Under the pieces are notes generated by a model. That model saw nothing but the letters and a program-made list of their open reading frames with translations, made no database searches and was not told the origin of the DNA. Positions 16,796 through 47,042 of a stretch of DNA of 64,000 bases are shown here, in pieces; positions within the stretch are counted from its first letter, which is position 1; each line of letters starts with the position of its first letter. Location of the stretch: the NCBI RefSeq assembly GCF_988243305.1, contig NZ_OZ547136.1, one strand, 5' to 3'. The position numbers were made by a program, and so were the translations under genes.

Positions 16796-17116
16796 ATGAT
16801 CGTGCAAAAAGAGCTGGTCGCTATTTACGATTATGAGGTCCCTGTACCTGAAGATCCGTTTTCCTTCAGACTTGAGGTCCATAAACGCTCTGAATTATTT
16901 ACAGGTTCCGTCTACCGGTTGGAGCGATTCCGGCCACATCCAACATTTCATCAACGTGATCGAGAGGATGTCGACCCGCTAATAAATGATGCATTGATTT
17001 ATATAAGAGATGAATTTATTGATGAGCGAAAATTACGAGGCGAATCACCTGAACCTGTAATAGTAATTTTTAATTGTGAACTACAGAATATATTCAACCA
17101 ACAAATAGAAAAATAG
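16796..17116 (+). CDS. yehK: Small protein of unknown function (about 105 aa)
   Basis: 106-codon ORF with ATG at 16796; conserved position between yehI and yehL. Confidence 0.7.
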   Translation: MIVQKELVAIYDYEVPVPEDPFSFRLEVHKRSELFTGSVYRLERFRPHPTFHQRDREDVDPLINDALIYIRDEFIDERKLRGESPEPVIVIFNCELQNIFNQQIEK

Positions 17117-17124
17117 CTTTATTA

Positions 17125-17148
17125 AAGGGGGAAACGGTATTCCCCCTT
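17125..17148. terminator. Hairpin between convergent yehK and the zorO-like gene
   Basis: AAGGGGG...CCCCCTT stem (17125-17131 / 17142-17148) lying between the 3' ends of two convergent genes; U-tracts are weak. Confidence 0.45.
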
Positions 17149-17169
17149 AGATGCGTTTCAATTTGCCCG

Positions 17170-17259
17170 TTACTTCAACAAATCAATCAACCGTAACAGA
17201 GCCACTAATAGCTCCAGTACGGCAATGAGCACGGTTAACTTTTGTGTCAGCGTGTCCAT
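17170..17259 (-). CDS. zorO: ZorO-like type I toxin, small hydrophobic peptide (29 aa): MDTLTQKLTVLIAVLELLVALLRLIDLLK
   Basis: 30-codon ORF on the minus strand (ATG 17257-17259, TAA 17170-17172) with an AAGGAG RBS 6 nt upstream. The single amphipathic/hydrophobic helix ending in LLK resembles the ShoB/TisB/DinQ/ZorO peptide class as I recall it. Absent from the ORF track because it is under 60 aa. Confidence 0.7.
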   Translation of the reverse strand: MDTLTQKLTVLIAVLELLVALLRLIDLLK

Positions 17260-17440
17260 CCGCTCTCCTTATTAAGGAGCGCAACACCAGCACCTTACCC
17301 TTACACTGCCTGTCGATACCGGTTTACGTATGTTGGACCACGATGTTGCACTCCGGATCAGGGCACCACCTGCAGCACCACCCGTCCGGTAGCCAGGACT
17401 TAAAATTGGTCCGATCCGGCGCAACGTCCCAACCGTCTGG

Positions 17441-17491
17441 ATTATAAATCTCATTATCTTAATTGCAACGGGGTCCACCGATGGTTATAAT
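17441..17491. promoter_or_regulatory. Back-to-back sigma70-like promoters for zorO (minus) and the OrzO-like sRNA (plus) sharing a palindromic -35
   Basis: TTGCAA at 17463-17468 is its own reverse complement; 17 bp downstream on plus is TATAAT (17486-17491); 16 bp away on minus is TATAAT (complement of 17441-17446). Predicted zorO TSS near 17433 gives a 5' UTR of about 174 nt. Confidence 0.55.
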
Positions 17492-17497
17492 TCGTTC

Positions 17498-17581
17498 GTT
17501 GGAACACGATGTTGCACAGGCTGCGGTGTTGGGCCTGAAAATAGTAAATAAAAGAACCTGCCTCACCAGCAGGTTTTTTTA
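17498..17581 (+). ncRNA. orzO: OrzO-like antitoxin sRNA (about 85 nt) predicted to pair with the zorO 5' UTR
   Basis: Consensus promoter immediately upstream; strong intrinsic terminator ACCTGC-CTCACCA-GCAGGT + T8 at 17556-17581. The sRNA segment 17501-17517 (GGAACACGATGTTGCAC) repeats plus-strand 17335-17351 (GGACCACGATGTTGCAC) inside the zorO leader, so the two transcripts are complementary over 13 contiguous (16 of 17) nt. Confidence 0.6.
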
Positions 17582-17691
17582 TTTACTGTGATCTGCTTTC
17601 CAGATATTTTTCGCTCAAACAACTAATGCGGCAAACATTTATTGCGCGTAAAATATCGTTTATTTCATTAATACATTTCAGGGATGAATAT

Positions 17692-18780
17692 ATGTCACCG
17701 CAGAATAATCATCTGCAGCGTCCGCCTGCCGCTGTGTTATACGCCGATGAACTGGCAAAATTAAAACAAAATGATAACGCACCTTGCCCGCCCGGTTGGC
17801 AGTTAAGTTTGCCTGCGGCCCGTGCTTTTATCCTTGGCGATAGCGCGCAAAATATTAGCCGTAAAGTGGTGATTAGTCCCTCCGCTGTCGAACGTATGTT
17901 AGTCACTCTTGCCACCGGGCGCGGTTTGATGTTGGTGGGGGAACCTGGCACCGCAAAATCTCTCCTGTCTGAATTACTGGCAACCGCTATTAGCGGCGAT
18001 GCCGGGTTAACCATCCAGGGCGGCGCATCTACTACTGAAGATCAAATCAAGTACGGCTGGAACTACGCCCTGCTTATCAACCATGGTCCGTCAACGGAAG
18101 CACTGGTCCCTGCCCCGCTTTACCAGGGAATGCGCGACGGCAAAATTGTCCGTTTTGAAGAGATAACGCGTACACCGCTGGAAGTACAAGACTGTCTGTT
18201 AGGTATGCTTTCTGACAGGGTAATGACGGTGCCAGAACTCACTGGTGAAGCCAGTCAGCTCTATGCGCGGGAAGGCTTTAATATTATTGCCACTGCCAAT
18301 ACCCGCGATCGCGGCGTCAATGAAATGAGTGCTGCGCTAAAGCGTCGCTTCGATTTTGAAACTGTCTTTCCGATTATGGATTTCGCTCAGGAGCTGGAGC
18401 TTGTCGCCAGTGCTTCGGCGCGTTTGCTGGCCCATAGCGGTATTCCGCATAAAGTGCCTGACGCGGTACTGGAGTTACTGGTCCGCACCTTCCGCGATCT
18501 GCGTGCCAACGGCGAAAAGAAAACGTCAATGGATACACTAACAGCGATTATGTCCACCGCTGAAGCCGTGAACGTGGCCCACGCTGTGGGCGTCCGCGCC
18601 TGGTTTTTAGCGAATCGCGCAGGTGAGCCAGCCGATCTGGTGGACTGTATTGCCGGAACCATCGTCAAAGATAACGAAGAAGATCGCGCTCGTCTGCGCC
18701 GTTACTTCGAACAGCGTGTCGCCACACATAAAGAAGCTCACTGGCAGGCTTATTATCAAGCCCGCCACCGCCTGCCGTGA
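17692..18780 (+). CDS. yehL: MoxR-family AAA+ ATPase (362 aa)
   Basis: Walker A GEPGTAKS, Walker B-like VRFEEI, sensor-1 IIATANTR and LKRRF arginine region visible in translation; AGGGA RBS before ATG 17692. Confidence 0.85.
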   Translation: MSPQNNHLQRPPAAVLYADELAKLKQNDNAPCPPGWQLSLPAARAFILGDSAQNISRKVVISPSAVERMLVTLATGRGLMLVGEPGTAKSLLSELLATAISGDAGLTIQGGASTTEDQIKYGWNYALLINHGPSTEALVPAPLYQGMRDGKIVRFEEITRTPLEVQDCLLGMLSDRVMTVPELTGEASQLYAREGFNIIATANTRDRGVNEMSAALKRRFDFETVFPIMDFAQELELVASASARLLAHSGIPHKVPDAVLELLVRTFRDLRANGEKKTSMDTLTAIMSTAEAVNVAHAVGVRAWFLANRAGEPADLVDCIAGTIVKDNEEDRARLRRYFEQRVATHKEAHWQAYYQARHRLP

Positions 18781-38010: not shown

Positions 38011-38183
38011 GATGAGCATTCAGATAGTGGTTCACGCGCACGGGTTGCGCACCGCCGGAGTAAGGATTTACTGAGGCTAGCGACGCCATCATAACGAGCA
38101 AAAAGTGCGATCGTCAAAGGAGAATCGTGAGGAAATGCTGCATTGCTGACATTTACGCCAGCAATGCAACACAAAAGAACTTT

Positions 38184-44853: not shown

Positions 44854-46849
<1,996 letters not shown>

Positions 46850-47042
46850 TATTTTCTCTTTTCTGTTAATTATTGAGAATAATTATTACTTCACTCAATA
46901 AGCTGCGGATATAACATTCTGAACCGCAGCTATTTGTGAATCCTTTCACAGTATAAATTTCCCCACGCGCATAGCCTTAATATCAGCACGCAATATTTAT
47001 TTAGCGTTCGCCTTAATTACTCATAGCATTAAGGAAGATCAC

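Follow-up and report, generated by a model that had tools for sequence, protein, structure and literature searches.

The zor/orz loci of Escherichia coli are type I toxin-antitoxin systems in which a small membrane toxin is repressed by a divergently encoded sRNA. The two-copy layout of O157:H7 is zorO-orzO / zorP-orzP (Fozo et al. 2010, PMC2887945; Wen et al. 2013, PMC3919570). Both EDL933 copies give an sRNA of about 85 nt whose start has been mapped, and Z3290/ZorP is toxic (PMC2887945). The zorO-orzO copy has been dissected experimentally: overproduction of ZorO is toxic and OrzO rescues via base pairing and RNase III (PMC3919570, PMC5397157), with Hfq dispensable (PMC3919570, PMC5397157). 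The zorO mRNA that has lost its first 28 nt (the delta-28 form) exposes the region +73..+102, named EAP, which is required for efficient translation and has been proposed to be a standby site, and it is via this region that OrzO inhibits translation (PMC5397157). Pairing rules have also been established; at least 15 continuous pairs are needed, or at least 17 discontinuous pairs with one internal mismatch (PMC3919570, PMC11264685), and repression is achieved with nucleotides 1 to 18 of OrzO alone (PMC3919570). Specificity was traced with compensatory mutations, alongside rescue of zorO by OrzO, to the V1 triplet at sRNA +9..+11, which is GAA in OrzO and ACG in OrzP (PMC3919570). OrzP does not repress zorO (PMC3919570). 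The rescue experiments in the cited papers were made on OrzO/zorO and V1-swapped constructs, with none reported for native OrzP/zorP; the swap itself (OrzO-V1 with zorO-V1) showed ACG-type pairing to be functional in the zorO context (PMC3919570).

The variation of the system is likewise described. Pairing-region variation, single-copy loci and orz-only strains are all in print (Fozo 2010; Wen 2013, 2016; PMC11264685, 2024), single-copy loci making up 25% of E. coli assemblies (PMC11264685). Outside the zor/orz family, tisB-istR-1, shoB-ohsC and dinQ-agrB are built in the same way. Their divergent sRNAs use the 5' end to pair with about 18-21 nt of a long toxin leader, far upstream of the RBS, and act by competition at a standby-type site on mRNAs that become active through 5' processing (PMC3919570, PMC5397157). 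They differ from zor/orz in having unrelated toxin and RNA sequences and other chromosomal sites, and SOS regulation has not been reported for zor/orz.

The window analysed here is a stretch of 64,000 nt from contig NZ_OZ547136.1 (assembly GCF_988243305.1). The region 17117-17692 is very likely a single-copy zor/orz type I toxin-antitoxin locus of E. coli with an OrzP-type sRNA, located in the yehK-yehL gap. The gap measures 575 bp and holds both zor and orz, between the coding sequences of YehK (16796-17116, plus strand) upstream and YehL, an AAA-type ATP-binding protein (17692-18780, plus strand), downstream. The chromosomal position is thus that of the known loci, with yehK on the yehI side, yehL on the other, and TTGCAA / TATAAT promoters for both genes; O157:H7 has zor/orz at the same position, in a gap of about 1.2 kb with two tandem copies. 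The locus is the already published ZorO/Orz system and not merely a zor/orz-like one, and nothing in it is new: the locus, the sRNA family, the far-upstream pairing, the allele-specific recognition, the single-copy and orz-only states and the promoter conservation are already in the literature and in Rfam. Family membership by sequence, the anatomy, the predicted duplex and the covariation were all obtained directly for the window locus.

The gene for the 29-amino-acid hydrophobic Zor toxin is adjacent to and divergent from the sRNA. The ORF list places it at 17170-17259 on the minus strand, stop codon included, and the peptide, MDTLTQKLTVLIAVLELLVALLRLIDLLK, is an exact match to the UniProt entry ZORO_ECO57, 'Small toxic protein ZorO', and is also identical to copy 1 of O157:H7. 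The coding sequence is identical to zorO in 89 of 90 positions and encodes the ZorO peptide (T3), which is the dominant Zor protein with 72.5% of ORFs (PMC11264685). A search of NCBIfam with the 29-amino-acid toxin gave no family up to E = 10.

The zor 5' UTR is 174 nt long, of zorP type, and covers 17260-17433 (minus strand), with the start at 17433 placed by homology and the ATG at 17259. The inferred start lies 7 nt past the minus-strand -10, and the published length of the zorO 5' UTR is also 174 nt (PMC5397157). The UTR aligns without insertions or deletions to the O157:H7 copies, with 169 of 174 positions identical to zorP and 161 of 174 to zorO. A terminator hairpin, GGGGGAAUACCGUUUCCCCC followed by UUUAAUA (17120-17148, minus strand), is predicted in the MFE fold at the 3' end of the mRNA and is kept in all aligned units. 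From this start to the predicted terminator the zor transcript would measure about 310 nt, and for zorO lengths of about 280 and 310 nt have been published (PMC3919570). The Shine-Dalgarno sequence AAGGAG (17265-17270) is part of a small hairpin, CUCCUU-AAU-AAGGAG (17265-17279, minus strand), found in the sequence and in the MFE folds of both the full-length and the delta-28 mRNA, and structure probing has placed the zorO RBS within a stem in both the full-length and the processed form (PMC5397157).

The predicted Orz-binding site on the leader, 5'-GUGCAACAUCGUGGUCCAAC-3', is at mRNA +83..+102 (17332-17351, minus strand), as indicated by the repeat, the duplex and the alignment. It makes up the 3' portion of the EAP (+73..+102, here 17332-17361), and its 5' edge is overlapped by an RBS-like GGAGUG motif (+80..+85, here 17348-17354). 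The site and the motif hold the same positions in the window leader as in the published zor leaders (for the EAP region and the OrzO footprint PMC5397157; for the GGAGTG motif PMC11264685). The first 28 nt of the leader (17406-17433, minus strand), absent from the translationally active delta-28 form, would be removed in the window strain as described in PMC5397157. In the predicted full-length fold the sequences on either side of the Orz site are paired with the segments GUUGGGAC and GUUGCGCCGGAUC of the leader 5' end, which agrees with the published EAP model (PMC5397157). The toxin mRNA also begins with a sequence (GUUGGGACGUUGCGCC, 17418-17433, minus strand) that resembles the Orz seed (GUUGGAACACGAUGUUGCAC, 17498-17517, plus strand). 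In the fold it would serve as an internal antitoxin mimic by pairing with the Orz-target region of the leader, consistent with the EAP model. The mean unpaired probability of the Orz site was 0.35 in the full-length and 0.38 in the delta-28 form, a weakly informative comparison in which the predicted opening is only partial, although the 3' half does open.

The antitoxin gene is recognised by Rfam. The OrzO-P RNA antitoxin family (RF02083) matches 17505-17580 on the plus strand over its full length (model 1-76 of 76) with 101.3 bits against a gathering score of 60 (E = 1e-16). The OrzP-type sRNA extends over 17498-17581 (plus strand), about 84 nt, with G17498 as +1 according to the published numbering, in which V1 is +9..+11. 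The RNA has a predicted fold of -26.5 kcal/mol (z = -2.0) and ends in an intrinsic terminator with a 13-bp stem (17549-17581, plus strand, from the fold), whose core at 17556-17576 (AACCUGC/GCAGGUU) is followed by U7, the U-run reaching 17581. The Rfam OrzO-P model includes this stem as its 3' helix. The terminator scan listed the hairpin on the minus strand only (17575-17555), presumably because the stem extension consumed the T-run on the plus strand. A match to OrzO-P on the minus strand (25 bits, 17550-17611) was rejected as a product of the palindromic terminator hairpin.

The orz promoter (17463-17491, plus strand) consists of a -35 TTGCAA at 17463-17468, a 17-nt spacer and a -10 TATAAT at 17486-17491, and scores 10 of 12 against the sigma-70 consensus. 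The zor promoter (17441-17468, minus strand) has the -35 TTGCAA at 17468-17463, a 16-nt spacer and the -10 TATAAT at 17446-17441. Both were obtained by promoter scan and homology. Identical -35 and -10 hexamers are kept in at least 99% of zor/orz loci (PMC11264685). The scan alone found 2 promoters against 2.8 expected in shuffles and thus no enrichment, and the two calls therefore lean on homology to the mapped promoters of EDL933. The palindromic TTGCAA (17463-17468) is common to the two divergent promoters, which physically overlap, and they might compete for RNA polymerase. The first-pass annotation had read this strand as a TTGCAA-17-TATAAT promoter driving a divergent transcript of about 85 nt with a terminator. 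Promoter, sRNA and terminator are all borne out, the first by homology to EDL933 and the others by the RF02083 score and the folded stem. It was also right to call the RNA an antitoxin, but this is not a prediction, as the RNA is already curated in Rfam although RefSeq/PGAP leaves it unannotated.

The sRNA and the leader are connected by a direct repeat in the DNA. The 20-mer GTTGGAACACGATGTTGCAC (17498-17517, plus strand) recurs at 17332-17351 (plus strand) as GTTGGACCACGATGTTGCAC, the two being identical in 19 of 20 positions with one A/C difference. With up to three mismatches allowed, the 20-mer matches only these two places in the 64 kb, where 0.01 are expected, and two matches were found in 0 of 100 shuffles. 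The repeat had been given as 17 nt (17335-17351 / 17501-17517) in the first-pass annotation; it is real but longer, the additional 3 nt extending it 5' to the start of the sRNA. The pairing (seed) domain of Orz, 5'-GUUGGAACACGAUGUUGCAC-3' (17498-17517, plus strand), thus forms 19 pairs over 20 nt with the leader from sRNA +1, of which 13 are continuous, in the geometry 6(1)13. The single mismatch is A·G at +7, sRNA A7 at window position 17504 being opposite a leader G at 17338, and its repair in silico gained about 6.7 kcal/mol. Counted from the homology-inferred start at 17433, the site lies within the EAP (+73..+102) of the 174-nt leader.

The location of the duplex is specific. When a 22-nt seed was offered the whole predicted mRNA (17433-17122, minus strand) it picked exactly +82..+103 at -34.0 kcal/mol, while 500 shuffled seeds gave a mean of -17.3 kcal/mol (sd 2.5) and a best value of -25.4 kcal/mol, none being as good as the real seed. 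The claim of the earlier reading that the sRNA would pair with the 174-nt leader far upstream of the RBS is in this way supported, with the predicted site at +83..+102. The duplex between the whole 84-nt sRNA and the whole leader (RNAduplex, -65.7 kcal/mol) was an unrealistic end-to-end structure and was discarded. The 6(1)13 geometry satisfies the published rule for pairing between the sRNA 5' end and the leader. An engineered OrzO with 6(1)11 pairing and its mismatch at the same position fully represses zorO (PMC3919570), and the window pair therefore exceeds what is experimentally sufficient, both by this comparison and by the rule of at least 17 discontinuous pairs.

The V1 triplet of the window sRNA is ACG (17506-17508). 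The window sRNA is, by its sequence, OrzP-type and not OrzO in the strict sense, an assignment based on V1 and on overall identity, which is 82 of 84 positions to orzP of O157:H7, with an identical 20-nt seed, against 65 of 84 to orzO. The strict OrzO class, with V1 GAA and a match to the zorO leader, does not apply: the duplex of the window sRNA is -17.2 kcal/mol with an O-type leader and -32.3 kcal/mol with its cognate leader. The comparison with OrzO-ZorO made in the first-pass annotation consequently holds for the zor/orz system, but not for the specificity class. By sequence comparison the window locus, present in one copy, combines P-type regulatory parts with the widespread ZorO peptide.

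The closest relative is zorP-orzP of O157:H7 EDL933 (Z3290 / sRNA-2), at the same site adjoining yehL, with 82 of 84 identical positions in the sRNA and 169 of 174 in the 5' UTR, and with the same 20-nt seed and leader site including the A·G at +7, the same V1 (ACG) and the same -35 and -10 hexamers. It differs in being the second of two tandem copies, where the window has a single copy, in two bases of the middle sRNA hairpin, and in the toxin, ZorP having S3 and the window toxin T3 as in ZorO. The zorO-orzO copy (RF02083, ZORO_ECO57) has the toxin peptide, the architecture, the 174-nt leader and the position of the EAP site in common with the window, but with V1 GAA in place of ACG and 65 of 84 positions in the sRNA it belongs to a separate specificity class. 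The orphan orz of K-12 MG1655, OrzPmg, is represented by a K-12-like strain, against which the window sRNA is identical in 82 of 84 positions and the promoter in 59 of 64; K-12-like strains lack the toxin ORF and the pairing site, with about 30 nt of zor leader left, whereas the window pair is complete. The zorQ/orzQ class (PMC11264685) has the same locus architecture and also a mismatch at +7, but its seed differs (GUUGAGAUGCCAUG...), as does its sRNA in the central part (63 of 84 identical).

The alignment comprised 16 full zor/orz units, from the window, eight E. coli genomes, E. whittamii and two other Escherichia species, together with one K-12-like orz-only remnant. The allele classes O, P and Q, with one variant of Q (L004) and one of P (L008), gave five distinct pairs of seed and site. 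Among the 20 intermolecular pairs on these five rows, 95% of the cells are standard pairs, against 86% in shuffled data (0 of 500 as high), and 5 of the 20 pairs, at positions 5, 6, 9, 10 and 11, change on both sides. The covariation score was 0.39 with just five distinct pairs, compared with 0.18 when shuffled (0 of 500) and at most 0.11 when the partner was slid by 1-3 columns. Since seed and site are direct repeats in the DNA, short-tract gene conversion may also have changed both in concert. Cognate duplexes range from -29.6 to -32.7 kcal/mol and those between the O, P and Q classes from -14 to -26 kcal/mol, and the weakness of the latter agrees with the published failure of OrzP on zorO. 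A 23-nt conserved leader/RBS pattern was found only in Escherichia (E. whittamii and two other Escherichia species) in a genome collection of 100,044 species; the scan of this collection added no new allele class and the covariation stays at five distinct pairs.

Only the O class has a pair at position +7. The P (A·G) and Q (A·A) classes and L004 (G·A) have a mismatch there, with the bases varying and the position retained. The mismatch was noted at 17504/17338 in the window and at the loci L001, L004, L005, L006, L009 and L010.

A megablast search with 17100-17640 against 5,426 complete E. coli genomes gave matches in 5,232, with 3,392 covering at least 80% of the query. Among the matches listed one strain, O158:H23 CFIAFB20140388, was 100% identical over 17100-17640, and in the matching records inspected the locus was always between yehK and yehL. 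In about 1,840 of these 5,232 the match falls short of 80% of the query, and the sampled ones match the orz half or less. The K-12-like strain 4FA (L003 1500-1700) has lost the toxin ORF and the pairing site; what is left is an orzP-type sRNA gene with both promoters and some 30 nt of zor leader. This orz-only K-12 state has already been published as OrzPmg (PMC11264685). The zor ORF and the orz sRNA are absent from the annotation of every RefSeq/PGAP record inspected (loci L001-L009).

The orz-only genomes bear on whether the sRNA, if expressed, is the antitoxin of the adjacent toxin at all, or at least whether this is its sole role. It might instead act on other targets in trans, its complementarity to the leader being partly vestigial. 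About one third of E. coli genomes retain the orz half alone, promoter intact, with neither toxin nor pairing site; the orphan OrzPmg is expressed in MG1655, as confirmed by northern, and functions beyond toxin repression have been proposed for it (PMC11264685); and the cognate duplex carries a conserved mismatch. The two sides of the duplex nevertheless covary over the O, P and Q alleles, which is expected only with selection for pairing with the leader, the 6(1)13 geometry exceeds the 17 discontinuous pairs that suffice experimentally, and no other Orz target has been reported in the literature. A trans-acting RNA in place of an antitoxin is on this evidence improbable. An extra trans function of OrzP-type RNAs is possible, and would supplement rather than replace the antitoxin role.

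The plus-strand promoter and hairpin could also be a transcription-attenuating leader of the downstream yehL operon and not a free-standing sRNA, with yehL following about 110 nt downstream on the same strand. Weak sub-threshold Rfam matches cover the terminator (Thr_leader 26.3 bits, Trp_leader 21.7 bits), but they fall far short of the gathering scores and reflect nothing more specific than a terminator hairpin. Beyond +1 there is no start of a leader peptide, OrzO-P matches this stretch with 101 bits, northerns of EDL933 and MG1655 have shown discrete RNAs of about 85 nt (PMC2887945, PMC11264685), and the upstream copy of O157:H7 (orzO) has no yehL downstream. An attenuator is accordingly very improbable. 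The candidate identity as a Thr or Trp operon leader was itself rejected, the scores being 26.3 against 55 bits for RF00506 and 21.7 against 41 bits for RF00513. That the 20-nt repeat is a neutral remnant of a local duplication with no regulatory pairing is barely credible, for although the copies are same-strand direct repeats, as a duplication would leave, at least 19 of the 20 pairs (wobble counted) are kept in every allele class while the bases vary at five positions, and in the homologous O pair mutations and their compensation have shown the pairing to be functional (PMC3919570).

The preferred reading remains an antitoxin sRNA acting on the zor leader, and its mechanism can be proposed by homology to zorO-orzO. 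Back-to-back sigma-70 promoters with a common -35 would give a leftward zor mRNA of about 310 nt, encoding the 29-amino-acid membrane toxin, and a rightward OrzP-type sRNA of about 84 nt. The full-length leader would be poorly translated, its own 5' end sequestering the region of the Orz site and the RBS lying within a hairpin. Loss of the first 28 nt would expose the EAP, a probable ribosome standby site on which efficient translation depends, and binding of Orz at the EAP would block translation and trigger RNase III-dependent decay. Transcription, processing, toxicity and repression in the window strain would in each case follow the published work on the EDL933 O copy.

Some observations were made elsewhere in the window. 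Rfam RF03039 (Peptidase-S11 RNA motif) matches 38015-38095 (minus strand) with 72.8 bits against a gathering score of 34.8, directly upstream of pbpG (D-alanyl-D-alanine endopeptidase) according to the annotation of a related strain, which is the expected context. NZ_CP076709.1, the strain that matches the window at 100% in the zor/orz region, has an insert between sanA and yeiS, made up of about 9 kb of genes resembling those of filamentous phages (Zot-family, pIV/GspD-like, replication initiator, PLD) and an IS110 transposase. The phage-like insert was looked for at window positions 46595-47000 and is absent there, sanA running straight into yeiS. The window comes from a different isolate than NZ_CP076709.1, since the overall identity is just about 98%. 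At 9541-11356, inside a large DUF4132 gene upstream of yehI, there is no megablast-level alignment to the approximately 98% identical strain save a 365-bp patch at 88%, which suggests a divergent or recombined allele.

The value of the locus as a discovery is small, as the locus, the RNA family, the mechanism and the population variation are all published. A reader of sequence only can 'rediscover' zor/orz because RefSeq/PGAP is blank for both genes and NCBIfam has no toxin model, and annotation pipelines would gain from the addition of Rfam RF02083 and a ZorO model. The case also demonstrates that a divergent type I toxin-antitoxin module can be pieced together correctly by such a reading of the bare sequence. 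The conserved mismatch at +7 is a small observation that may or may not have a meaning. It is unlikely that the mismatch is a selected feature and that OrzP-type RNAs have a second function explaining the persistence of the orphan gene in about one third of E. coli genomes. If true, a selected mismatch at +7 could tune the strength of the duplex or its cleavage by RNase III, or help to insulate co-resident copies from each other.
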